64,000 nucleotides of DNA from an uncultured Planctomycetota bacterium. GTDB lineage: Bacteria; Planctomycetota; Planctomycetia; Isosphaerales; Isosphaeraceae. Position 1 is the first letter of the stretch, and each line of letters starts with the position of its first letter. Below, in pieces: positions 22,944 through 48,923 of the stretch. Under the pieces are notes generated by a model that saw nothing but the letters and a program-made list of their open reading frames with translations, had not been told where the DNA came from and did not search any database. Location of the stretch: positions 160,001 through 224,000 of the forward strand of contig CAWJTV010000039.1 in the NCBI GenBank assembly GCA_963845755.1. The letters run 5' to 3'. The position numbers were made by a program, and so were the translations under genes.

Positions 22944-23137
22944 CCGGTTGCGTGAGGCGCCCTGGCGAGGCCCCGTTGGGCGCTCGGTGAGCACCGAATT
23001 CCCGCGTCAAATCAATGGGTGCTCACGGAGCACCCTACAACCCCACCGCGGCGGATCGTAGAATCGAGCGAGTTCGACCGGGAGGGACGCCGGCCCGCGG
23101 AGGCTGCGCGGCCGGTCGTGGCGCGAGCGAGAGGCTC

Positions 23138-24622
23138 ATGATGAGCAACAATCTGACGGACCTGGTCGATCGGTTCGCCGGGCGGGAGGTCATCGTCCTC
23201 GGCGAGGCCATGCTCGACGCGTACCTCTCGGGAACCGGCGCGCGGCTCGGTCGCGAGGCGCCCGTGCCGATCGTCACCGTCGACGAGCGCCGCGAAGCGC
23301 CCGGCGGTGCGGCGAACACGGCCGTCAATGTCCACACCCTCGGCGCCCGCGTGCGGTTCCTCTCGGTCGTGGGGGCGGATTCCGAAGGAGACCGGCTCCG
23401 CCGGCTCCTCCAGGGACGGGGGATCGCGACCGACGAGATCCGGGAAGACCCCACGCGGCGGACCCTCGTCAAGACCCGGGTGAGCATGGCATCGCAGCTC
23501 CTCCTCCGGTTCGACGAGGGGACCACAGGACCGGTCGACGCGGTCGTCGAGCAGGGGCTGATCGATCGGTTGGTCGAGCTGTTCCCGCTGAGCGACGCGG
23601 TGGTGATCTCCGACTTCCGATACGGCATCCTGACGCCGCACGTGATCGCCGCACTGGCGCGCCTCCAGCGCGACCACCGGCGGGTGGTCGTCGCCGATTC
23701 GAAGGACCTGGCGGTTTATCGCGAAGTGGGCCTGACGGTCGCGAAGGCGAACTATGAGGAGGCGGTCCGGCTGATCGGGACAGCGTCGATCGATCGCGGC
23801 GGCCCGCGCGTCGAGCGGATGGCCGCCGAGGGCTCGCGGATCCTCGAGGTGACGGGGGCACGGATTGCGGCGGTCACGCTGGACACCGAGGGCGCGCTGG
23901 TCTTCGAGCGCGATCGGCCCCCGTATCGGACGTATTCCCGCGCGGCGCAGCATTCGCGGGCCGCGGGTGCCGGCAACGCGTTCCTCGCCGCGATGGCGCT
24001 GGGCCTGGCGGCCGGCGCCGATACGACGGCCGCCGCGGAGCTCGCCTCGGCTGCCGCCGCGGTCGTCGTCGGCCGGGAAGGGACGGTTTCCTGCTCGGCC
24101 GATGACCTCCGCGACCAGGTCGCCGCCGGCGATAAGCTGGTCTCGAATCGGGCTCGCCTGGCGGAGCTGCGCGATTCTCATCGACGCGCCGGCCGGCGGG
24201 TGGTCTTCACCAACGGGTGCTTCGACATCCTCCATCGCGGCCACATCACCTACCTGAGCCGCGCCAAGGCGCTGGGCGACATCCTGATCGTCGGCGTCAA
24301 CTCGGATGAGGGCATCCGTCGCCTCAAGGGCCCCAGCCGGCCCATCAACACGCTCGAGGATCGGATCCAGGTCCTCGCCGCGTTGAGCTGCATCGACCAC
24401 GTCATCCCCTTCGACGAGGATACGCCCTGCCAGCTCGTCGAGGTCGTACGCCCGGACATCTTCGTCAAAGGGGGCGACTATACCCGCGACCGCTTGCCCG
24501 AAGCCGACCTGGTCGAGTCGGTCGGCGGCGTCGTTCAGATCCTCCCGTTCATCGCCGATCGCTCGACGACCGACATCATCGAGCGGATCCGCCGATCCGG
24601 CCACGACGCGCCGGACGAATGA
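23138..24622 (+). CDS. hldE: Bifunctional heptose 7-phosphate kinase / heptose 1-phosphate adenylyltransferase
   Basis: REAPVP, GGAANTA, VISDF PfkB domain; FTNGCFDILHRGH, GVNSD, VKGGDY, RSTT. Confidence 0.9.
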   Translation: MMSNNLTDLVDRFAGREVIVLGEAMLDAYLSGTGARLGREAPVPIVTVDERREAPGGAANTAVNVHTLGARVRFLSVVGADSEGDRLRRLLQGRGIATDEIREDPTRRTLVKTRVSMASQLLLRFDEGTTGPVDAVVEQGLIDRLVELFPLSDAVVISDFRYGILTPHVIAALARLQRDHRRVVVADSKDLAVYREVGLTVAKANYEEAVRLIGTASIDRGGPRVERMAAEGSRILEVTGARIAAVTLDTEGALVFERDRPPYRTYSRAAQHSRAAGAGNAFLAAMALGLAAGADTTAAAELASAAAAVVVGREGTVSCSADDLRDQVAAGDKLVSNRARLAELRDSHRRAGRRVVFTNGCFDILHRGHITYLSRAKALGDILIVGVNSDEGIRRLKGPSRPINTLEDRIQVLAALSCIDHVIPFDEDTPCQLVEVVRPDIFVKGGDYTRDRLPEADLVESVGGVVQILPFIADRSTTDIIERIRRSGHDAPDE

Positions 24623-24863
24623 CCGAATTTGAGATGCTTGATTCCCAAATGTCGCTGAATCTGGAATTCGGCTGTCGTTCGCCTCACGAGGGATGGTCTC
24701 CCTATCTCCTTGCGGGGAAATTGCTTGTCGTGACGAGGTCCGCGAGTCCAACATTTCGTGACAATTGAGCTTGCCCGCGAATCGAATTCACAACACAATA
24801 AACGTCTGGCATCGGCAACAACCACCCTCAGAGCGAAACCATGTTCAAGGAAGGACATGCTGA

Positions 24864-25482
24864 ATGCGGCGATTGACCACACTCTGGCTCCCGCTCCTAA
24901 TGACTCCTCTGATCGCCCTGAGCTTCGCACGAACGGTCAGGGCGGACCCGATCTCCTACGCGTACTCCTCATCGGGCGATGTCGGCTCCGCGGCGAGCAA
25001 CCCCGTCGGGAACTTCACCCTCAATGCGATCAATGGAAGCCTGCTCGGCCCCGGCTCTCTCGAGCTCGCGACCTTCCAGGCACCGACCGTGCCCACCGGG
25101 GCCACGCTGACGTTCACAAACATGCCTTTTTTTATCAGCGTGGATTTCCACTCGGATTCCCAGAATAGCAACACCTCGGATCTGACCATCCAGGGTGTGA
25201 TCAACGGCAGCATCACGGGAACGACCTCCGCCGATGTCGTGGCGACGGCGACGTCCATCCAGGCCACCGGAATGAATGCGCCTCCCGTTTTCCCTGGGTT
25301 CCTTCAACGTCATGACGCCTCAGACGCTCGCTCCCAGCGGGATCGACGGCGGGATGACCACCCTGATCGGACAGGTGTCAGCCATGGCGGTCCCGGAGCC
25401 GACCGCACTGGCCTTCCTCGGGATTCTCGCCGTGAGCGCCGCTCTCCGATCGGGCATTCGACGGATCCAGCGGCGGAGCTGA
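24864..25482 (+). CDS. PEP-CTERM sorting-domain protein; frameshift near 25290
   Basis: Signal peptide ending VRA-DPI; C-terminal VPEPTALAFLGILAV...RRIQRRS. Confidence 0.85.
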
Positions 25483-25763
25483 CAAGCCGGATCGTGACGC
25501 ATTCCGGGGCCGCTCATCGTCCCCTGAGTCGGCCGAGAGATCGGGTCGTCGGATCGGTGTCGACCGATCCCGGTGCGGATGGCGGTGCACTGGCGATTTC
25601 CCGCCCGCGGCCGGGTGAGCCGACCGGACCAATCCGGCTGAGGCCGTCCTCGCCACGGCGCGCCGTGGCGGGCGCATGCCCGTTTTCGTCTTGTGTCGAC
25701 CACGCGGCCCGGTACACAATCCAGTTGGTTTGGCAATTGCTGAATCCTCGATGAATCGGGCCC

Positions 25764-27863
25764 GTGATGGCGTTCGAGCGATTGGGGAACTCCATGTGCC
25801 ACGCACCGGTAGTTTGCTGCATTCTGGTTGTCGCGTTCACCGCGGTCGTACCCTTTCTGACGACCGGGCGCGGCCTGTACGGAGACCTTCTCTCGGACGA
25901 CGACACCGAGAAGTCGCAGCCGCGGCAATGGGACGACGCGACGCTTCGCGGATGGCTTCGTGATGCGGTCGGTGAAGTGGTCGCGGTACAGGACAAACTT
26001 GCCGACCTGCACCGTTCCACAGCCTTCGACATGCTGGCCAACGCGCAGGCGAGCGTCGGTGATGCGGAAGGTGCGCGGGCCACGCGCGAGTTGGCCGTTA
26101 AGGCAAGTCTCTCGAAGCCAGCCGATGGTTACGAGGGTCTCAAGACCCGAGCCTTCGACCTGGCGCGTGCGAACCAGACGAGCGAGGCCGCGCGCAGCTT
26201 ACCAGGATGCCGTCCGAATCGCGCTCGACGTGAATCAGGTCGATCCGCCGCACGGAAGGCCCTTCAACCTTTACCTCCTCCTGTCAGACGGCCGGTCGTT
26301 AGCCGACATCCTCAATCGGGCCAAGGACCCGGAGGCGGCGCGGCAGGTCCTGCTACAGGCCCGTGCCGCGGCCGAGGACAAGATTCGCGGGAGGGTGGAG
26401 TGGGCCTTCAATCCCATCCGCGAGCAGGTCCGCATGGGCGACATCGCCGGCGCCCGTGCGTCGATTGATGCCGTCGCGCCGCAGATCAACGCGCTGGGCG
26501 ACCCGATCCGTCGCCTCTACGGGCTGAAGGACATGGCGGCCGTGCGCTGGCTGGTGGCCGACAAGGAGACCGCCCGCGCCCTTTGCAAGACAGCCCTCGA
26601 GTTCGGCCGCTCCCTCCCGGGCGACGTCCGCGAACGGTCCTATCCGATGCACCTGCCGATGCTGATGCTCGCGACGGTCGAGGATTACGAGGGCGCATTC
26701 CGCATTATCGGGGAGGTTCCGGAGAGCCTCAGGCTTTGGGCCCTCAGCCAGGTCGTCGAGTCGATCGGCCACAGGGCCGGGGTGGACCGCTACCAGATGG
26801 AGCCGGCGTTCGATTCGGCCATCGATCGCGAGACCGCAAAGAACGCGGCTCCGGACCGCCGCGAAGGTCAACCAGGCGCTCCTGGTCAAGGCGGAACCCG
26901 TCGTCGCGATTGAAGGAGATCGTTACCACAGCGCTGCGACGATCGTGGAGCTTCAGGCGCGGCTGAATGACTTCGAGGGCGCGCGGGCCACCATCGAAGG
27001 GCTCGCCAAGTTGCGCGATAGCAAGGCGGCGAGCGCGCGGGCCAAGGGACTGGTCGAGCTCGCCCTTGCGGAAGCCAAAGCGGGCCGGTGCGACGAGTCC
27101 AACGCCGACTTCCAGGCCGCGCTCGTCGCCGCCGACTCCCTGCCCGAGCGCGGCGAGCAATGGCGCGGCTCTCGCGAACGCCGGACAACGTATCCGCGAG
27201 ACGAGGCCATCAGCGCCGTCGTCGTGTCGCGCGCCGAGCTGGGAGACGTTGATCGGGCGATCGAGACGGCCGGGCGCATCCACGATCCGGTCCGCAAGGC
27301 CGATGCGCTCGCTTCGGCCTCGCGCAAGGAGTCGCGTGAACGACTCGGCTGGGGCGTTGGTTCTGGCCAAGACCCCCGGCCACGGGTTCCCGGCGATCCC
27401 ACGGCTCATCGAAATCGCGGACGACCAGTTTCGTACGGGTGACCTCGCCGCCGCCCGAGCAACCCTGACCTTCGCCTTGAAAGAAGCGACGGACACCATG
27501 GAAAGGCATCCCCAGGACCCGACGATTCCGCCCTACGGGGAGCCACCGTCGCTCAGGGATCGGCCGTTTGCCGAAGGACCTGAACGTGCGGTTCAACAGC
27601 ACGTCAACGCCGAATTCGAGCTGGCGAGGGTCCGAGCAAGGCTGGGTGACATCGCCGGTGCGCAACGAGCGTTCGAGAACGTCCACAACGAGCGCCGGCT
27701 GGTACAACTGCGAGACGAACTCCTGGTTGCCCAGTTCTGGGCCGGCGACGCGCCGGGCGCCTTCGCAATGGCATTCCAGCGCACCTCCCCAGGGGAGCGC
27801 GTGGTTGCCATTCAAGAGCTGTGTCGGGCGATCCGGCGCCTCAAAGAGACGCTACGACCTTGA
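25764..27863 (+). CDS. Exported alpha-helical repeat (TPR-like) protein, several frameshifts
   Basis: Consecutive ORFs with repeated GDxxGARA motifs; N-terminal hydrophobic segment. Confidence 0.6.
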
Positions 27864-27925
27864 AATGCACCGGCGACGCCACCACGGAGCCCGCGGTCCT
27901 CGCCGCCGTGCCGCCAGTTCATCGA

Positions 27926-30469
27926 TCACAGTCCGCCCTTGAGGGGCAGGTCGCCGAGCGCGTCGCCATTGGCCTTGAACCCACCGCCGTCGACGTCCAC
28001 GAAGATCGGGTTCGAGACGGCCACGGGCCGGTCGTTGGCGTGGTCGGGACCCATGACCTCGCCCAGCTTCGACCGTTCGCCGATGGCCGCGACGATCACG
28101 TGCGTATCCCGGTCGAGCGCCAGCGCGATCTCCCGGTCGAACTTCAACGTCGCGGCCGAGAATGGATCGGGCGTAGCACCCCGCAAGAAGTTCAGCGCCT
28201 CGGCCGGCCGGCCGTTGAGGAAGACCTGGACACGATCCACGTCGAACCAGTTGGGGCACTGGACGCGGACCCGCAAGGTTGCCTTCCCGCCTGGGACGGC
28301 CAGGTCATTGCCAGGGATTGCCAGACCTCCCGCGGCATCGGCAGAACGCAGTTCGACTTCCAGGAACGGCCCGCTCGACAGGACCATGTGCCCGCGCTCG
28401 GCGGCGTGGACCACGTCGAGCGTCCGGACCTCGGCAGGATCATCCGTCGGACTCTTCACGTAATTCCGCAGGAAGCCCGACCCGTGGAAGTTGTAGTGCG
28501 CGTCCGTATTGACCACGCCGGGGATGCGCCGGCCGAGATTGAGGAGCTGCAGCCAGTTGACGATCGTGTTATTCCGCGACCGGCCGCGGAACTCCACGGT
28601 CGGTGCGGCGAAGATCGTGTCGAGCGGGTGGACCTCGATGACGTCCATGTGGCCGAACATGCCGCTGAAGCCCGAATCCGGCTTGCCATCGCCATTGCGG
28701 TCATGGAACATCCAGCCGATGTCGGGGTGGTTGACCTGGACGAGTTTTTCGCTGCCGCCGTCCCAGAGAGCCAGCCGCGCGATCTGGATCGCGGGGTCGT
28801 CGTCGGGCGTCGGGCCGCCTCCATTTTGAGTGCGGGGCCGCAAGGCCAGCGGGAAGGCGTTCTGGTGATTCAGCGGTAGGGGTTCGTTGGTCAGTTCGAT
28901 TCCGACGCAGGTCGCCATCCGTCGCTCGGCCCCCAGCCGCTTCAGGTGCGGCTCATAGGTCGAGAGGCGGTTGTGCTCCGTGCAAGGGGCGAACTCGACG
29001 TGCTCGCAAAGGAGGTTCAACACCCGCCCGAGCTGGCTCGAGGTGTTGTCGCCCGACGGGCTGGAATGGCTGTGAAAGTCGGTGCTGATCCATCCCTCCG
29101 TCTTCACCGAGCGGACCAGCTTCGCCTCCAAAGGCGTTTCCTTACCACGCTTCACATCAATTCGCGTGAACACTGCGTCATACTCGGGCCCATAACTGAT
29201 GATCACGTCGTAAGAACCGGGGCCTAGCTCGCGCCGGAAGCGGCCGTCGTGGCTGTAGTAGACGTTGCGGACCGCGATCTCGCCGCTATCGGGCCCGAAG
29301 TCGGGGCTCTCCGTGCCGTCCCGGCCGATGAACTGGACTTTGCACGGGATGGGTCTGCCGGCGGCGTCGGTGATCCGCGCCGCGACCGCCGCGGCCTCGG
29401 GCAGCTCGACGGACAGCGCGTCCGGCGCATCGGGCCCGACCTCGACGGACTTCGTGCCTCGCCCGAGTGCCGAGACGGTCAGCGTTCCGGACGCATCACC
29501 GGCCGTCAGCGTCATCTGACCCGAGTGGTCCGTGCGGCCCCAGGAAACCCGTTGGCCGCCGCGCGCCATCGCGACGTCGGCCCCGACGACCGGCCGGCCC
29601 GCCGTATCTTTCACCGAGAGGCGAACGGGATGGTCAGCCTTCCCGGCCAGCCGGTCGGCGACCCGGCGGACGTCGAAGAGATTGGCTCCGGGAATGATCC
29701 GCCGCGTGAGCCGATAGGACTCGCCGGGCGCCAGCCGGACAACCACCTTGCCATCGTGATTCCGGTAGCGGAGCAGGAGTTGACGCGCGTTGCCACCGAG
29801 GATTTCATGCCCATCGGCGGCCACGCCGTATGCCTGGCCGAAATGCTTGTCATAGGCCCAGAACAGGCTGGCTGGCTGGTCGGGCCCGTGCTCGAAAGTA
29901 CGGTCGGCGCGGATCGCATCGAGTAACTCGGCGTCGAGCGGGGCCCCGCCGCGGTTGGCGAACATCGTGGTCACCATCAGGAAGGGTTGACCGTCCTCGA
30001 GCGTATAGGCCACCTCGACATCCGGCGTCTGATCGCGCGGGGAGGCGACCAGCTTCAGCGTGACCTTCCGAGCCCGGACGAACACGCGGTCCAGCTCGGC
30101 CGTTTCGTAGGTCGTGGGCGCCTCGACTTCGATCCCGGCGAACTTCAGGTCGCGGGAGGATGCCCCGGGGTAGAAGGCCGAAAGCTGGTCGCTCTGGACG
30201 TCGCGGCGCGTCAGGTCGATCAGGCATCCGCCGACGTTGCGGACCGTCATGTTCGCGTTCCGGCCCTGCATCGGGTGCGCGATCACGGCGACGAGCTGGT
30301 CGTTGGCCATCGCGAAGTCGCCGTAGATGCCGTCAACCTCCTTCCCTTGCGGGATGTACCGGTCCCAGGTCTGCGGGGAGAGCGCGACCAGATCGGCGGC
30401 CCTCGTCGGTGCGATCAACACGCACAACAGCAAGGGGACGTAGATTGTCTTGAGGATGATCCGGGTCAT
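27926..30469 (-). CDS. CehA/McbA-family (PHP-type) metallohydrolase, secreted
   Basis: Signal peptide; DFHSHSSPSGD, CTEHN, VNHP, NTDAH, SNPIFVD. Confidence 0.85.
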   Translation of the reverse strand: MTRIILKTIYVPLLLCVLIAPTRAADLVALSPQTWDRYIPQGKEVDGIYGDFAMANDQLVAVIAHPMQGRNANMTVRNVGGCLIDLTRRDVQSDQLSAFYPGASSRDLKFAGIEVEAPTTYETAELDRVFVRARKVTLKLVASPRDQTPDVEVAYTLEDGQPFLMVTTMFANRGGAPLDAELLDAIRADRTFEHGPDQPASLFWAYDKHFGQAYGVAADGHEILGGNARQLLLRYRNHDGKVVVRLAPGESYRLTRRIIPGANLFDVRRVADRLAGKADHPVRLSVKDTAGRPVVGADVAMARGGQRVSWGRTDHSGQMTLTAGDASGTLTVSALGRGTKSVEVGPDAPDALSVELPEAAAVAARITDAAGRPIPCKVQFIGRDGTESPDFGPDSGEIAVRNVYYSHDGRFRRELGPGSYDVIISYGPEYDAVFTRIDVKRGKETPLEAKLVRSVKTEGWISTDFHSHSSPSGDNTSSQLGRVLNLLCEHVEFAPCTEHNRLSTYEPHLKRLGAERRMATCVGIELTNEPLPLNHQNAFPLALRPRTQNGGGPTPDDDPAIQIARLALWDGGSEKLVQVNHPDIGWMFHDRNGDGKPDSGFSGMFGHMDVIEVHPLDTIFAAPTVEFRGRSRNNTIVNWLQLLNLGRRIPGVVNTDAHYNFHGSGFLRNYVKSPTDDPAEVRTLDVVHAAERGHMVLSSGPFLEVELRSADAAGGLAIPGNDLAVPGGKATLRVRVQCPNWFDVDRVQVFLNGRPAEALNFLRGATPDPFSAATLKFDREIALALDRDTHVIVAAIGERSKLGEVMGPDHANDRPVAVSNPIFVDVDGGGFKANGDALGDLPLKGGL

Positions 30470-41515: not shown

Positions 41516-41541
41516 GTAAATCAAACGACCGTTTGCTTTAC
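41516..41541. repeat. Palindromic site family B, copy 1 (GTAAATCAAAC-GACC-GTTTGCTTTAC)
   Basis: Related copies at 42095 and 44553. Confidence 0.7.
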
Positions 41542-41555
41542 AAATTGGCGAAATC

Positions 41556-41963
41556 TTATTGGATAGCTCGTGCTCCCCTGGCTGGCGTCCGGATCGCGGG
41601 AGGGGGAGGCGGTGCCGGTCTGCGTGGAGCCGGTGGACCGGGACCAGCCCATGTGCTGACGATTTCATGATGTATGGATAATGAATCACGTTGCGGATCA
41701 GTGCAACGACATTTCCAAGTGCCGGGCCATGGCTGACCGAGGAGGGTTCGCCAATATCGAGGCCAGAACGGCGATTGACAGAATGTGCCGATGCTCGGTG
41801 GATAGCTTTCCCCCGGCGGAGCTTTGAGGGCCCAAGAGTGGTGAAGCCACGAGTGTTGCGGATCGTGTTCGATGCGATATGCCGTGACCGCCATCCATAT
41901 CATGACGGCCGCACCGGGCACCACGAGCATCCACCGCCGAATCGTCATCCTTGGGATTCGCAA
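41556..41963 (-). CDS. Small planctomycete-type membrane protein (MRIPRMTIRRWM leader)
   Basis: Basic leader plus one TM helix. Confidence 0.6.
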   Translation of the reverse strand: MRIPRMTIRRWMLVVPGAAVMIWMAVTAYRIEHDPQHSWLHHSWALKAPPGESYPPSIGTFCQSPFWPRYWRTLLGQPWPGTWKCRCTDPQRDSLSIHHEIVSTWAGPGPPAPRRPAPPPPPAIRTPARGARAIQ

Positions 41964-42094: not shown

Positions 42095-42120
42095 GCAAAC
42101 CAAACGTTCGTTTCCTTTGC
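42095..42120. repeat. Palindromic site family B, copy 2 (GCAAACCAAAC-GTTC-GTTTCCTTTGC)
   Basis: Same length and symmetry as 41516. Confidence 0.6.
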
Positions 42121-42435
42121 GCACATTAGTACAGTAAAATAACCCGTCCGCAAAGGGGGTAACTTTACTCGCTGCTCGCTGTCAATTGGGGTGTCGATGT
42201 TCAGTAGCGGCTATGCCTTACCGATCCGGTCAGTTGGCAGCGAATGGACGTCTCGGGCCTGGTGCGGCATTTGTCGTGGCGCGGTATCATGTGCGGATGA
42301 GGATCACCCGGACTCTGAACGCCTGACGATCGTCGGAGGGATGGCTTACAATTGTCCGATGTGTAAAGGGTGAATATCCCTTTCGTATCAACGAAATCCG
42401 AGGCGTCGTTTCGGAACTTACGTCGAATCCCTAGT

Positions 42436-42465
42436 GTAAAGCCTCATTTAGAACTCAGACTTTCC
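42436..42465. repeat. Palindromic site family A, copy 1 (GTAAAGCCTCA-TTTAGAAC-TCAGACTTTCC)
   Basis: 11-8-11 arms similar to 43097 and 44145. Confidence 0.6.
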
Positions 42466-42522
42466 AACTTCACGACCGGCCTGTCGCCTGGGCTCATTGA
42501 TTCAGACGAGCGAGGTGCTTGC

Positions 42523-43062
42523 GTGGAGAAGCGCACATGGGCCTCTGTCACGGGCGATCCGTGTAGTTGCGGGTTCCTGGAACGAGCCGCAGATGACCCG
42601 AACCTGCCCATCCGATTTGACCCATTGGTGGGCGAGTACCACTTTGAATTCCCCAGTCCGTGCGCCGGGGAGGCCTGCCCTGAAGCCAAGGCGCAGCTCA
42701 CGATCTACCACTGCCCGTTCTGCGGAGGCGCCGCCCCGCCCTCCAAGAGGGATACCCTGTTCACTAACATCTCGGACCAGGACGCGGCGCGGCTGTACCG
42801 GCTGTTCGAGGGGATGGACACGCTTGAAGAAGTGGTCCGTGCTCTGGGGCCGCCGGACGATGACATGGAGCGGGGACTGACGGTGAGGGAACCGGAGAAG
42901 GAGGGCAAGCCTCCGACATTACGGACCTATCGGACCCTGCGCTACACTCGGCTATCGGACAATGCCGATGTTGAGGCATATGCCGATCCGGCCAAGGGCA
43001 ACGTACAGGTCGCGCTGGTGGGCAAGTACATCGGGCCGCCCATCGAACAAGCGCCAGACTAA
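42523..43062 (+). CDS. Hypothetical protein with Cys motifs (CSCG, YHCPFCGG)
   Basis: GTG start after GAGGTG RBS; clean ORF. Confidence 0.7.
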   Translation: MEKRTWASVTGDPCSCGFLERAADDPNLPIRFDPLVGEYHFEFPSPCAGEACPEAKAQLTIYHCPFCGGAAPPSKRDTLFTNISDQDAARLYRLFEGMDTLEEVVRALGPPDDDMERGLTVREPEKEGKPPTLRTYRTLRYTRLSDNADVEAYADPAKGNVQVALVGKYIGPPIEQAPD

Positions 43063-43096
43063 CGGGCTCCCCAGCAACCCGTCCACCACGAGGGAC

Positions 43097-43126
43097 GGAA
43101 ACGGTGATTCATAGTTGAGACTTACC
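43097..43126. repeat. Palindromic site family A, copy 2 (GGAAACGGTGA-TTCATAGT-TGAGACTTACC)
   Basis: 21 bp identical to 44151-44171. Confidence 0.85.
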
Positions 43127-43244
43127 ACCGGGCTCCGGTCCGGCCACGAAGCGCAAGCGGTGATCCAGAAACGAGGCTTGACAGCCTCCTGGCTATACGA
43201 TTGCTTCGGGTGAAGTTCAAGGTGCGGCGGAGGCATGGAACGCA

Positions 43245-44135
43245 ATGATGGACGACTCGGGGATGATTGTGGCCCAGTGGCTCTACGCGTCAGTCGAGCA
43301 TTTCGACGAGACGAAAGACCGGCCAAAAGGGATTAGCGGCATCCTGGCCATCGATCCCGATGGAGGCGATTGGCGGTTGGTCGCTGAGCGTAGGCGGATA
43401 AGCAATCTGCGGCTCACTCGTGATGGGGAGACTCTCGCGTTCCTGGAGGACCAGCCGGACCCGAACCTCTGGATTCTCGGCCGTCAATTCGGCTCTGTAC
43501 CCAAGCTGGTGACCCGTCTTATCGGGTTTGCCTCCTTCGTCTGGTCGAGCACGGGCGAGGAGTTCTTCGTCACTCTCAGAGGTCCGGCTGCCCGCCAGGC
43601 AGGTCGGGAAGGGGCCTGGCGCGTCGATACGAGCGGCTCGAATTGGAGACGACTCCTCCTCCAAGAGAGCGAACGGGTTCAAGATTGCTCGCCGGACGGC
43701 CAATGGCTTCTGACCAGTTCCTTCGGCTCCCCGAGGATCAAGATCGTCCGCCCAGACGAGACCGACTTGCGAGACCTGACCGGGCCGGGAGAGAAATGCA
43801 TTCGACCGCGCTTCTCGCCGGATGGGAGCCGCATCGTCTATGCGTCGCCGACAGACCACGGCGAGTCGCTCTGGGTGTTGGATTTGGGCAGGTGGGAACG
43901 CCGGCTGCTCCGGCCCGAATCCCAGGTCACGATCGTGGCGTCTTGGTCACCGGACGGCTCGCGGCTCGCGCTGAAATTGGTGGATTGCGTCTATGACGAT
44001 CGCGGTAAGCTGACGGTACCGAGCAACGACCTATCTCGGATGAGGCCACGGATCGAGATCATGGACGCGGACGGGGGTGGCCGCCGTCCGCTCAATCTGC
44101 CGCCAGGCAGGATTCTCCTCGGAGATTGGCGCTGA
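43245..44135 (+). CDS. TolB-like beta-propeller (PD40 repeat) protein
   Basis: CSPDGQWL, PRFSPDGSRIVY, SWSPDGSRLA, DWR end. Confidence 0.85.
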   Translation: MMDDSGMIVAQWLYASVEHFDETKDRPKGISGILAIDPDGGDWRLVAERRRISNLRLTRDGETLAFLEDQPDPNLWILGRQFGSVPKLVTRLIGFASFVWSSTGEEFFVTLRGPAARQAGREGAWRVDTSGSNWRRLLLQESERVQDCSPDGQWLLTSSFGSPRIKIVRPDETDLRDLTGPGEKCIRPRFSPDGSRIVYASPTDHGESLWVLDLGRWERRLLRPESQVTIVASWSPDGSRLALKLVDCVYDDRGKLTVPSNDLSRMRPRIEIMDADGGGRRPLNLPPGRILLGDWR

Positions 44136-44144
44136 GTGACAAGT

Positions 44145-44174
44145 AGAAAGGGTGATTCATAGTTGAGACTTTCC
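44145..44174. repeat. Palindromic site family A, copy 3 (AGAAAGGGTGA-TTCATAGT-TGAGACTTTCC)
   Basis: 9 bp after the upstream stop, directly followed by AGGAG RBS and ATG. Confidence 0.85.
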
Positions 44175-44185
44175 AGGAGCGAGCC

Positions 44186-44494
44186 ATGCGACTACCCCGC
44201 GTGAGGTGTACCCTGCGGTCGATCATGATCGCACTGGGGATCTTGGCCTTGCTCCTGGGAACGGAACGGCTTCTGTTTCATTATGCGGTGAGCCTGGTGG
44301 CATCACATAATGATTATCTCTGGAACGAGGCGGTAACCGTCTGGGTGACCCTGAACATCGCGCTGTCTCTCCCCATCGGGCTGTCAGCCGCCATTGTCCG
44401 GGCCGCAACGAAAGACCAGGCCGAGGCACGTAGAGCGCATCGGGTGAACCATAGGTCACCCTTTCCATTCCCGGCGGCGACTCGGCCGCGCTGA
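44186..44494 (+). CDS. Small two-TM membrane protein (MRLPRVRCTLRSIMI leader)
   Basis: AGGAG RBS; two hydrophobic segments. Confidence 0.7.
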   Translation: MRLPRVRCTLRSIMIALGILALLLGTERLLFHYAVSLVASHNDYLWNEAVTVWVTLNIALSLPIGLSAAIVRAATKDQAEARRAHRVNHRSPFPFPAATRPR

Positions 44495-44552
44495 GGTCGA
44501 GGAGCTGACACCCCCGCGTAGCTCCTATCCGCATGACCACCTCTGCTCGGTG

Positions 44553-44578
44553 GTAAATCAAACGAGGGTTTACCTTAC
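44553..44578. repeat. Palindromic site family B, copy 3 (GTAAATCAAAC-GAGG-GTTTACCTTAC)
   Basis: First 13 bp identical to 41516. Confidence 0.7.
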
Positions 44579-45033
44579 ATATGGGCCGCCGCCCACGCCG
44601 GGTCGGTTTTCCCCGGCTCTTGGTGTAAAGCAATTCGGTAAAGAAATCAAAGTAAGTATCCACGAAGCTACGACGGGTTTCTTGACTATTGCAATGGCGG
44701 GGGGCAGGGCGTGAGCTGGCGGAACGGATGAAGCTGCGGGCGAGCGGTCGCTGAACGTCGCCATTGCGGCAGAATGTGAATTTCGATGGACTGAGCTGCC
44801 GTCGATCACGCAGTCTGGCGTCACATTCCGGACGAATCGGCACTCTTGTGATACCGATCGGGAAATCAGAGCCATCTTCGATCGTCTGGAGGGAGCCACC
44901 CGAGCTGTCGTCGATCCTGGCCTCTCCTTCTGAAGCGCATGTCTCAGACCGTTTCATCTTTTGTCTTGTTCTCAACAAGGCGATAGACTCACAAATCAGC
45001 GTCTCCTTCGCCTTTTGATCACGCTCGAGGAGG

Positions 45034-45661
45034 ATGGTAGGGCATCCTCCTCGAGCTTTCCCTTGGGAGCAGTACCTCCCGTGGGCGCCGGTCAGGGTAC
45101 GCCAAAGCACGGCACTTCGGCCAGAGGGCGCCGACCGCGCCCGCGGATTTGTTTCCGCAAGGGGTGTGGACGCAAGTATCAGCCCCGCCGCTGGAACCAG
45201 CGCTACTGCCAGGACCCGCAATGTCAGCGGGAGGTCCACCGCTGGCAGGCAGCGCGCCGGCAAGCCCGACATCGCCAGCACGCCCAGGCCAGAGCCCAGC
45301 ATGCCCAGGCGGAAAAAGCGCGCCGTCAGCGAGCGAAGTCTGCGTCCCAGACCATTGAGAGCTCAGAAGTTACGCCGGCGCGTGGTCACGCAGCAGAAGA
45401 TTTTTTTCTCCGCCGTTATGCGATCGGCCGGGCTGCCATGAGCACCCCGTGAGCTCGCCCCGCAACCCCGCCCGCTACTGCGGCCCTGCCTGCCGGCAGG
45501 CCGTTCGCAATGTCCAGGACCGGGAACGCAAGTGGCTTTCCCGCGGCACCTCGGATGGGCGGAAGAAGCGCGCCATCGAGTACCAGGCCGCACGAAGGCG
45601 CCGCATCGTTCGATCAGGCCATCTCACCAACTCGGCACCATCGCGACCACCTCCCCAATGA
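45034..45661 (+). CDS. IS-borne Cys-rich basic hypothetical protein (frame change at T7 run near 45400; start uncertain)
   Basis: CFRKGC...YCQDPQC then CDRPGC...YCGPAC. Confidence 0.45.
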
Positions 45662-45756
45662 CGGTCCTCCCCAGGCGGCGCCGGTCGTCACTTATCGCGT
45701 GGCCATCCGCCGCGCTGGTTTGCTGGAGCCGGTGGTTTTCCCTCAGGAGTTCCAGC

Positions 45757-46166
45757 ATGCCTGCGACACCCATCCTCGTCCCCGCGCGACTGCGGCGTCC
45801 CCCCAGACCGGTTGGTCCTGGGTCGACCGTCGCTTCGTGCGCGAGCACGCCGCGCACCTCTCCCGCGACGCCGTGCTGCTGTACTTCACCCTCTGTGCCG
45901 TGGCCGACAAGCACGGGTTGTCGTTCTATGGCGACGCCACCATGGCCGCCATGGTGCGGATGAACTTGCCGGCCCTGATGGCCGCCCGTGAGGAATTGCT
46001 CGCCCGCGATCTCATCGCCCATGAGACGCGTTTCACTCAGGTGCTCTCCCTGCCGCCAGCCGGCCAACGCCGCGGTGAGTCCGGCGGAGGACTGATGTCT
46101 CTGGGCGAGATCTTGCGCCAGGCCGCCGCACTCCCTCAGCTCGACGACGAAAGGAGCCTGCCATGA
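45757..46166 (+). CDS. IS-borne winged-helix-like protein; frameshift near 45800
   Basis: WSWVDRRF...LLYFTLCAVADKHGLSFYGD...QVLSL; AGGAG RBS; stop overlaps istA ATG. Confidence 0.7.
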
Positions 46167-47674
46167 ACGTCGGTTTGTGGGCGGAGATCCGCCGCCTGGC
46201 CGAGATCGACAAGCTCTCCACCCGGGCCATTGCGCGACGACTCCACTGCGCCCGGCGGACCGTGACCGCGGCCCTCCAGCGGGATCATCCCTCGCGCCCC
46301 CCCGTGCACGCCGCGCCAGTCTTTTGGACCCGTACAAGGCCAAGATCAACGCCTTGGTGGAAAAGTGTCCCGAACTCTCGGCGGTGCGAATCCGCGAGGA
46401 GATCGCCCGCGGGCCCGACGGTTATACCGGCAGTACGATCCTCGTGCGTCGCTATCTCCGGACCATCCGCCCGGCTCGCGGACGGATCTACCAGGAGGTC
46501 CATTACGAGCCGGCCCAGGCCATGCAGGTGGACTGGGGCGAGTGCGGTCACGTCCAACTCGGGACCACGACCCGCAAGGTCTCGGTCTTCGTGGCCGTGC
46601 TCTGCTACAGCCGCCTGATGTTCATCGAGTTCACGCTGTCGCAGCGCAAGGCCGAGTTCTATCGCGGCGTGGTGCACGCCCTGGAGTTCTTCGGCGGCAG
46701 TCCCCGCGCCCTGATCGTCAACAACTTGAAAGCCGCCGTCCTCAACGGCTCGGGCCGCACCGCCTGTTTCCATCCCGAGTTCCTGGCGCTGTGCGGTCAC
46801 TTCTGCCTGCAGCCGATCGCTTGCGAACGACGCGACCCGGAATCCAAAGGGATCGTCGAGGGGGCCGTGCGCGTACGTCAAGCACAACGCCTTGGCCGGC
46901 CGTGGGGCGGAGCTGACGGGCTTCGAGGACTACCTGGCTCTGGCACCACTGTGGCGTGACCAGGTGGCCAACGTGCGGCTCCATGAGACGACCAAAGAGC
47001 GGCCGGTCGATCGCTTCCTGCGTGAGCGCCCGCGGCTGCGCCCGTTGCCGGCGATCCCGTTGGACACCGACGAGGTCGTGGCCGCGGTCGTCAGTCCCCA
47101 TGCGCGGGTCGAGTTCGACGGCAACCGCTATTCGACACCGCCGAAGTTCGCTCGCCGGGCGGTCACGATCCGCGCCGACCGCGACGCGGTCCGCGTCCTC
47201 CACGAGGGTCAGGTGCTGACCCAGCATGTCCGTTGCTACCAGCGGGGACAGTTGATGGTCCGGCCGGACCATCGCACTGCCGCGCTGGCCCTGGGCCGTC
47301 GGGCTCGGAGCACCGCGCTGGAACAGACGTTTGACGCGTTGGGGCCCGAGGCACGCCAGTTCCACCTCGGCCTGCGGCGTCAGCCGATCAAGACCGGCGT
47401 TCACCTGCGTCGCTTACTCGGCCTGGCCCAACTCTACGGGGCCACCGAACTGCTCTCCGCCATCGCGGAGGCCCTGGAACTGGCGATCTACGATGCTGCG
47501 GCGGTCGAGAACCTCCTGTTGGCCCAACGGCGACGGCGGCAACTCCCGACCCCCACGTTGCCCACGCCCCGGCGGCGCGAATTGATCGATGAGATCGAAC
47601 TGGAACCGGCCGATCCCAGCTTCTACGATCGCTTCTGCACTCACACCGCGGAGGACGCTCATGGCACGACGTGA
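46163..47674 (+). CDS. istA: IS21 transposase IstA; frameshifts near 46300 and 46870
   Basis: N-terminal HTH, QVDWG, LCYSR, ESKGIVE, FDGNRYS. Confidence 0.9.
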
Positions 47675-48431
47675 GGACAATCTCCAGACCCGATTGGACC
47701 GCGATCTGGCCGAATTGAAGTTGCCCGAGATCGCCAAAGCCTACCGCGAAGTGCTGGATGACGCCGCGCGCAAGGGGAGCTCGATGCTGGAAGTCCTGGC
47801 GACTCTGATCGGCCTGGAGCAAGCCGCCCGTCAGCAACGCGCCCTCCAGCGGCGGCTGTGCGAGGCCCGGCTGCCCAAGTTGAAAACCCTGGCCGAATAT
47901 GATTTCACCTTTCCCAAGCGGATTCCCAAGGCAACGATCCTGCGGTTGTTCGACTGCGACTTCATCCCCCGCCATGGCTGCGCCGTGCTGATCGGCCCGA
48001 CCGGAACCGGAAAGTCGCATCTCCTCACGGCGTTGGGTTACACGGCGGCCGAGCGCGGCTACTCGGTCCGCCATACACGGGTCGTGGACATGATCAATCA
48101 TCTCACCACGGCCCAGATCAACGGTCTGCTGGGCAAGGCGCTCAAGACCTACGTCCGTCCCAGTCTGCTCCTGCTCGATGAGCTGGGCTATCTGCCCATC
48201 GACAAGCGCGGGGCCGATCTGTTGTTCCAGGTGGTCGCGGCCCGTTATGAATCCGGATCGATCGTCCTATCGACGAATCGACCCTTCCGGGAATGGGGCG
48301 CCCTGTTCGACGTGGACAACACCCTGGCCACGGCCTTGATCGACCGGCTGATGCATCACGGGGAGGCACTGGTGATTCAAGGAGATAGCTATCGGATGAG
48401 AGACAAAGATTCTGATTCGACCAGCGCGTGA
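47661..48431 (+). CDS. istB: IS21 helper ATPase IstB
   Basis: GPTGTGKS, LLLDELGY, LSTN, DRLMHH, GDSYR. Confidence 0.95.
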   Translation: MARREDNLQTRLDRDLAELKLPEIAKAYREVLDDAARKGSSMLEVLATLIGLEQAARQQRALQRRLCEARLPKLKTLAEYDFTFPKRIPKATILRLFDCDFIPRHGCAVLIGPTGTGKSHLLTALGYTAAERGYSVRHTRVVDMINHLTTAQINGLLGKALKTYVRPSLLLLDELGYLPIDKRGADLLFQVVAARYESGSIVLSTNRPFREWGALFDVDNTLATALIDRLMHHGEALVIQGDSYRMRDKDSDSTSA

Positions 48432-48923
48432 ATCGGCGCGGCGCGTCCACGTCCGGAGCGGGTATTCCCCGCGAAGTGAGCATCCTTTGGCGTTAGTGAC
48501 CGGGATGTCCAGCCCACCCTTGAGCCAGCCCGGCGATCCTGCCGGGCTGTTGGTTCAAGCGGCCGGTTCCTTGAACAGCGGGCTCGCGTCGGCCCCAGGC
48601 CCTGGTCCAGGATCCGCCAGCAGCTCCAAGTAGGGGCTTCGTCTTGGCGACCTGGTCATCCTGTGGTGGCCCGCGGCGGTCCACGGCGAGTGAATTGGCG
48701 GTGGTCCCGTCCCCAACGTCGGACTCACGGAGCAGGAACGCCTGGCCGGTCCGTCCGCGTCTCGCGACGTCACGACACAGATTGAGACCGACCTCACTCC
48801 GCGCATTTGACCGCGTGCCGAGCGGCGTGGCCGCATGCGCCGATCGTCTTGGACCTCACTCGAGCGCCCCTTGTGGCTCCGTCTTCACGATCAAAAGTGG
48901 CTCTCATTTCCAGATCGGTCCCA

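Follow-up and report, generated by a model that had tools for sequence, protein, structure and literature searches.

Serine invertase systems flip promoters or the alternative ends of one gene, and the pdif modules of Acinetobacter rely on XerCD tyrosine chemistry at 11-6-11 sites; according to partial accounts, the pdif modules carry genes between short recombination sites on which the enzyme acts in trans. Integrons and CALINs, as presented in part of PMC4889954, combine a promoter platform with a site in first position and promoter-poor one-gene cassettes, and many of their arrays are enzyme-less and have cassettes in common with other arrays. For the Bacteroidales, the accessible part of the report on rAID-1 describes arrays distinct from integrons, in which intergenic motifs are repeated and which have a dedicated 5′ XerD-like recombinase, a tyrosine enzyme (10.1101/471110). 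The breaks made by serine recombinases are staggered by 2 bp, and polarity is lost when the centre of the site is palindromic (PMC2475636, in part). Among them, the Tn3 and gamma-delta resolvases use a crossover site of about 30 bp together with accessory sites, and wild-type Tn3 resolvase is described, in the portion of PMC2602789 considered here, as accepting only supercoiled res × res substrates and giving the resolution product. Hin, Gin and Cin, Min of p15B and Mpi of Bacteroides are small serine recombinases with several sites, inverted end sites and possible action in trans (Min and Cin are named in the accessible parts of PMC6906374, Mpi in those of PMC9881135). In the literature searched, which comprised titles and abstract openings and few subscription journals, we found no description of a system such as the one discussed below.

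In this study, we revisited a window of 64 000 nucleotides from an uncultured planctomycete of the Isosphaeraceae (positions 160001–224000 of contig C39 of the source genome, G000; L-numbers denote the compared loci from this genome and its relatives). We consider it likely that the array in this window, which has no enzyme gene, belongs to a cassette system run by a small serine recombinase of about 200–220 aa; what sequence comparison establishes is the anatomy of the sites, the exchange at their central 2 bp, the recurrence of cassettes, the linkage of the gene to the sites and the homology of the platform's core to the upstream site of the recombinase family. The original prediction had described an array with three 30-bp imperfect palindromes, at 42436, 43097 and 44145. 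These are real and lie where it had placed them, but the sites at 43153 and 44437 and the platform had been overlooked; no position in the window other than these five reaches 13 bits or more. All on the forward strand, the array consists of the platform, an AG-centred site, gene 1, an AT-centred site, a linker, an AG site, gene 2, an AT site, gene 3 and a final AT site, with distances of 661, 56, 992 and 292 bp from one site centre to the next. The conserved platform (42247–42435) is made up of a promoter-like element and a res-like accessory region: a predicted cassette promoter, GTGCGG-N17-TATCAT, at 42262–42290, and accessory half-sites at 42363–42421, with GTAAAG 73 nt ahead of the first site and an inverted half that ends 15 nt ahead of it. 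The attI-like crossover site of the platform follows at 42436–42465 (AG centre at 42450–42451) and precedes gene 1 (42523–43062), which encodes 179 aa with a weak match to DUF6980 below the cut-off. The AT site at 43097–43126 (centre 43111–43112), a 26-bp linker (43127–43152) and the AG site at 43153–43182 (centre 43167–43168; 33 bits) form a 56/57-bp AT-to-AG doublet, and the AG site is the start of the segment with gene 2 (43245–44135), a PD40/TolB-like beta-propeller of 296 aa. The next AT site, at 44145–44174 (centre 44159–44160), has no linker and abuts both the previous stop, which ends at 44135, and the next ribosome-binding site, AGGAG at 44175, just as had been claimed. It differs from site 43097 at 3 of 30 positions, and the single run of 21 identical bases noticed earlier spans positions 7–27. 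Gene 3 (44186–44494), a 102-aa ORF with a hydrophobic leader and no family, crosses in its reading frame the terminal AT site at 44437–44466 (centre 44451–44452), so that its last codons are supplied by the flank. Both halves of this site resemble left, gene-end halves placed head to head, and its right half is the same in contigs C6 and C12 of G000. The three genes are, as had been stated, co-oriented and unrelated.

The array is bracketed, together with a lone cassette-type gene, by three 26-bp hix-like palindromes with differing centres. The first (41516–41541, forward strand) is a 12-2-12 palindrome of a second family, of the Hin-like res/hix type, and is not a cassette site; this family is also found upstream of a gene for a 193-aa Hin-like resolvase in C6. 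The second lies at 42095–42120, forward strand, and homology of 98% to C6 begins inside it, at 42103. Flanked by these two and without a 30-bp site is a gene on the reverse strand (41556–41963), whose 135-aa product has the hydrophobic MRxPRMT-type leader that is common in cassette genes. The third palindrome (44553–44578) is contained in a conserved right flank with GTAAAG repeats (44467–44687, forward strand), which in C6 runs into the Hin-like resolvase gene; that gene is missing from the window. Toxin–antitoxin pairs are often found beside the 26-bp site at homologues of its linked Hin-like resolvase and several platforms come after such modules, so that res modules may carry arrays or be entered by them. 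An IS21-family element (IstA/IstB; 44849–48899, strand not assigned) adjoins the array and lies outside the system; it has two extra upstream ORFs, and its first 252 bases are identical in C40.

A weight matrix for the sites was seeded on the window, iterated and scored against the shuffled genome. Above the best shuffled-genome score there are 52 sites in the genome; at 20 bits or more the count is 68, grouped into 23 clusters, of which 16 have two or more sites (two shuffles gave 3 and 0); a chance origin of the sites is excluded. Clusters hold one to nine sites, and the motif recurs at many loci of the genome and its relatives with varying gene content, as the original prediction had led one to expect. 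The platform, with its leader of about 190 bp ahead of the first site, is present in the genome in 13 strong copies (12 of them seeds) and seven partial ones. It was found in 27 of 121 genomes of the family (26 of 120 relatives), mostly large MAGs, and matches to the pattern in other genomes belong to the Isosphaeraceae, Isosphaerales or Planctomycetota. The promoter-like pattern occurs in 43 of 47 full platforms; the copy in the window was not called by a generic sigma-70 scan, and a generic scan for promoters and terminators stayed at chance level. Upstream sequence divides the platforms into those behind a large-serine-recombinase element, those behind a 26-bp Hin-like res palindrome, as in the window, and those with other leaders; we read these upstream sequences as carriers. 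No Rfam match was obtained at E≤0.5. The locus set contains 20 AT-then-AG doublets at 57 nt, and a long doublet pattern run over 401 genomes of the class matched in only two, and even in G000 at one place, so that it is too strict to bound the range. A metagenome scan gave 16 contigs of 1–3 kb, which are too short for context. Runs of genes with an MRLPRMT-type leader and without an upstream 30-bp site occur in G000 on C19 (about 23100–29500), C40 (41184) and C47 (81775), and may represent arrays in decay or the cassettes of a different system. Just upstream of an IS-filled array in C6, there are three tandem tyrosine recombinase genes, RIT-like in arrangement (L001:10748–13962).

Where exchange takes place can be read from pairs of sites in which one flank is common and the other differs. 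We compared 21 such pairs (members overlap and platform pairs are included) after the removal of 16 duplicate loci. At positions 12–14, 10, 12 and 12 of the 21 pairs match, with a baseline of 0.47–0.54, and at positions 15–19 the counts are 21, 19, 19, 21 and 18, so the break in identity falls between positions 14 and 15. The central 2 bp are identical in 19 of the 21 pairs, the other two differing as AT versus AG, and the 8-bp spacer of the original prediction is identical in only four, which speaks against its proposal that matching spacers are required. These comparisons place the exchange at the central dinucleotide, and the 11-8-11 symmetry first proposed is better read as 14-2-14 with a centre of AG or AT. 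Among 169 sites, 99 are AG-centred, 54 AT-centred and 16 have another centre. AG sites have a marked polarity: an ORF starts only rightwards of 61, only leftwards of three, on both sides of seven and on neither side of 22 (n=93). Head-to-head junctions, that at 44437 among them, are mostly AT-centred. The orientation of junctions (AG: 16 tandem forward, two reverse and two convergent; AT: 11 tandem and four convergent) is only supportive, as the gene calls come from a rough hexamer caller.

That single-gene modules are exchanged at the sites, as had been proposed, is borne out by gene content that differs among loci and genomes. A homologue of gene 1 (79% nucleotide and 75% amino acid identity) is first behind the platform in another genome, L083, where it has other neighbours. 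A contig of 2576 nt from an independent soil run (X4/23) matches 43167–44165 with 58 differences, about 94%, and is unlike the window on both sides; its match starts exactly at 43167, which is position 15 of site 43153. A 481-bp unit is present on two contigs of G000, C12 and C39 (93%), with unrelated neighbours, another cassette, found in three genomes, has a different left half in each, and a further one follows the recombinase-side site in L078 but the platform in L132. The cargo consists of mixed, whole genes (LRR, TPR, redoxin, glyoxalase-like and one Imm5-like), and 21 of 32 cargo proteins are without a Pfam match. Regarding the 1048-bp circle predicted for the TolB-like gene, this figure is indeed the distance between two AT centres, but elsewhere the segment begins at 43153. 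Among the sequencing runs listed for this DNA none is of RNA, and all shares are ≤0.15. Contigs from four of eight runs, at a low depth at which absence cannot be shown, contain no circle junction or inverted isoform, and a joint of 42299 to 44432 in one contig has only 22 letters on its short side and is too weak to count.

The arrays agree with integrons and CALINs in every feature named above: co-oriented, promoter-poor one-gene cassettes stand behind a platform with a predicted promoter and a first-position site, many arrays are enzyme-less, and cassettes recur with differing neighbours. They differ in that there is no IntI and no conserved tyrosine recombinase upstream of the platforms, in that the linked serine recombinase lies downstream of the array and faces it, and in having two centre types and the capacity to grow from both ends. 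The arrays studied here also lack the attC hairpin, in line with the original prediction: the doublet at 43097–43182 folds into no stable hairpin on either strand and does no better than shuffles, and attC-like folding was rejected.

The candidate enzyme is a 200-aa protein with Resolvase and HTH_7 domains (PF00239, 120 bits; PF02796, 36 bits). Its catalytic motifs are intact (YxRVS and RLDRLGR, with the HTH at the C terminus), and S12 and R72–R78 are invariant in 18 rows. Its clade is supported at 100/97, and about 40 database clusters are found at ≥72%. Five of the six clade loci that include the 3′ end have an AG site of at least 13 bits 59–60 nt downstream of the gene, a count in which kin among the loci are not independent and the clade site of C29 had been in the training set of the matrix. 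Judging from the translation, many database forms of 219–220 aa end in residues that match the DNA just before the downstream site, and a half-site stands 66–67 nt before six of seven recombinase-side sites. Of 33 relatives at 49–65% identity across the class, 16 have a site that matches the matrix ahead of their own start. With two short L133 fragment matches dropped before the tiers were counted, resolvases below 49% identity have none upstream (0/33) or downstream (0/27), and random windows gave 3 in 4000. A GTAAAG half-site lies 69–76 nt before the upstream site in 15 of 18 related resolvase genes (background 2.2%), and the spacing of accessory half-sites differs by site type (72–73, 67 and 57 nt). 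As the related resolvases share the platform's site and half-site upstream of their genes, the core of the platform is homologous to the upstream site of the resolvase family and represents its res-like region.

Remnants of the gene or its flank were detected in eight of 61 loci (one 42-nt cross-match to a Hin-like gene was dropped), in all eight at the far end of the array and facing the platform; L214, fetched via the recombinase gene, has the same layout. Among the 53 loci without a remnant, 16 are contigs of 1–3 kb and four had been fetched for another gene. All six genomes with a recombinase match of at least 75%, obtained with a query taken from a platform locus, belong to the 27 of 121 genomes that have the platform. 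The window array has no recombinase gene, and an intact one was not found in G000 (87.9% complete), which has three fragments, on C29, C48 and C20; the C20 fragment retains the 3′ end of the gene and a decayed site, but is not accompanied by an array (L225:4700–4900). Array-linked copies are mostly broken, with one intact copy, L154, among the genomes searched, and searches of viral contigs, and of PLSDB plasmids at E≤1e-30, gave no small recombinase of this kind. In the wider family, two small serine recombinase genes stand in tandem at L164:751–1754. The enzyme has the Resolvase and HTH motifs, the central-dinucleotide exchange suggested by the flanks and the cognate site with accessory sites of a small serine recombinase, belongs to the same protein family as the Tn3 and gamma-delta resolvases, and has relatives with the site upstream of their own gene. 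It differs from these resolvases in that dozens of divergent crossover sites lie between unrelated genes and in that the gene has lost its upstream site and has a downstream one; a role in cointegrates is not evident.

We propose that the 30-bp sites are copies of the crossover site of the recombinase family, and that the platform is a res-like region, with accessory half-sites and crossover site, behind a promoter. A full element would read recombinase gene, AG site and cassettes in one direction, meeting cassettes, an AG site and the platform in the other. The enzyme would cut with a 2-bp stagger; AG centres would set direction, with genes pointing away from the promoter, and palindromic AT centres would permit both orientations and yield head-to-head meeting points. 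Direct repeats of AG × AG or AT × AT would excise circles (717, 1048 or 292 bp in the window) that re-enter at other sites, and inverted end sites would flip the array and change the promoter-proximal cassette. Arrays without the enzyme, such as that of the window, may be served in trans or be stranded. With confidence only a little better than even, we go further and suggest that a resolvase has here become the equivalent of an integron, its res site turned into a promoter-bearing capture platform, with an AG/AT code and action in trans. Degenerate copies of the crossover site would then have become the cassette ends, directional where AG and reversible where AT, at which whole genes would be integrated, excised and inverted across dozens of arrays in large genomes of soil planctomycetes. 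Of these steps, the capture of circles has the weakest footing, because wild-type Tn3 resolvase works only on supercoiled DNA with two full res sites, and the integration of a circle would be unusual for such an enzyme.

This step is absent from the main rival, in which the same enzyme carries out inversion and deletion only at multiple sites, in the manner of a shufflon or Min, and cassettes spread by transfer of whole elements and are then reshuffled or lost. In full elements, the two AG end sites are indeed inverted and the recombinase gene lies outside one of them; the closest solved structures are DNA invertases, and the cassette that changes sides between L078 and L132 also favours this reading. 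The window array itself has no inverted AG site. The arrays share with the serine invertase systems the small enzyme, the several sites, the inverted end sites and possible action in trans, but whole unrelated genes recur across loci and genomes, the sites are mostly direct repeats, and segments serving as alternative ends of one gene were not seen. This cargo, the variation in the number of sites per cluster, the unit common to C12 and C39 and the cassette with three different left halves speak against it, and we regard the rival as unlikely, if still worth weighing. A large serine recombinase, that of the C48 clade, would also fit the central 2-bp exchange, and the platform lies just downstream of it in eight loci, with unrelated upstream flanks where these were aligned. 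As the cassette integrase it is nevertheless improbable: three homologues at 79–82% and 24 at 48–56% are without platform and sites, the left end of the element is its own, IS-like and different from the 30-bp site, and four of the eight loci, in addition to C48, carry a remnant of the small recombinase at the far end. Elsewhere the platform comes after a Hin-like res site or a different leader, and the large enzyme looks like a carrier. Its IS-like element consists of a small ORF and a gene for 700 aa, has a sharp left end (L007:4268–6789 on C48; L124–L134) and carries the platform in one lineage; in L084, a miniature derivative, the left end is fused straight to the platform.

The original prediction itself, that of lox- or dif-like 11-8-11 sites with matching spacers used by a tyrosine recombinase in trans, draws on the size and inverted arms of the sites and on the spacer common to 43097 and 44145. 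The precedent of rAID-1 and a tyrosine integrase fragment beside the platform in C4 and C48 would also favour it. It is largely refuted by the crossover profile, since identity in the pairs breaks at the centre of the site and not at the edge of a spacer, and the enzyme linked to the sites belongs to the small serine recombinases. Tyrosine recombinases near the arrays are few and mostly unrelated to each other; the motif had been expected near one family of them, but none of the 43 PF00589 matches in G000 is consistently linked. The arrays also differ from rAID-1, as partly described, in having no 5′ XerD-like recombinase, and from pdif modules in having a promoter platform. A housekeeping dif site was rejected, the strict pattern being found in one of five high-completeness relatives and not in the other four. 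We give the tyrosine reading very little credence, and less still, next to none, to the idea that the sites are operators of transcription factors or inert dispersed repeats: they are palindromic and lie upstream of genes, but site centres are where homology between loci sets in and ends, the genes carried vary, and hybrid and head-to-head sites exist. The 193-aa Hin-like resolvase of C6 was likewise discarded as the enzyme, as its own site is of the 26-bp family and only one of 29 other homologue loci reached at least 14 bits, with a weak 14. The integrase fragment in C4 is C-terminal (L014:6156–6950) and adjoins, by eye, a putative selenocysteine tRNA; the fragment at C48 is related to it.

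The sites and the linked gene point to an enzyme of the resolvase type, and gene-collecting arrays would appear to have evolved twice. Integrons, rAID-1 and pdif modules are all tyrosine-based, and a resolvase-based system, if true, would mean that gene capture arose independently, through steps that are still readable in ordinary res-bearing relatives across the class. It would also mean that a small serine recombinase able to accept widely differing sites, and perhaps to integrate, occurs in nature; Tn3 resolvase does so only in part, after activating mutations, in the portion of PMC2602789 considered here. Such an enzyme would offer a test of how topological control relaxes and possibly a 200-aa tool for assembly. 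For the organisms themselves, comparison of the loci indicates that soil planctomycetes stack swappable one-gene units behind a shared predicted promoter in an integron-like manner. Eight of the 21 genes with the leader motif in G000 have a site upstream, and the arrays may account for part of the abundance of short orphan genes in such genomes.
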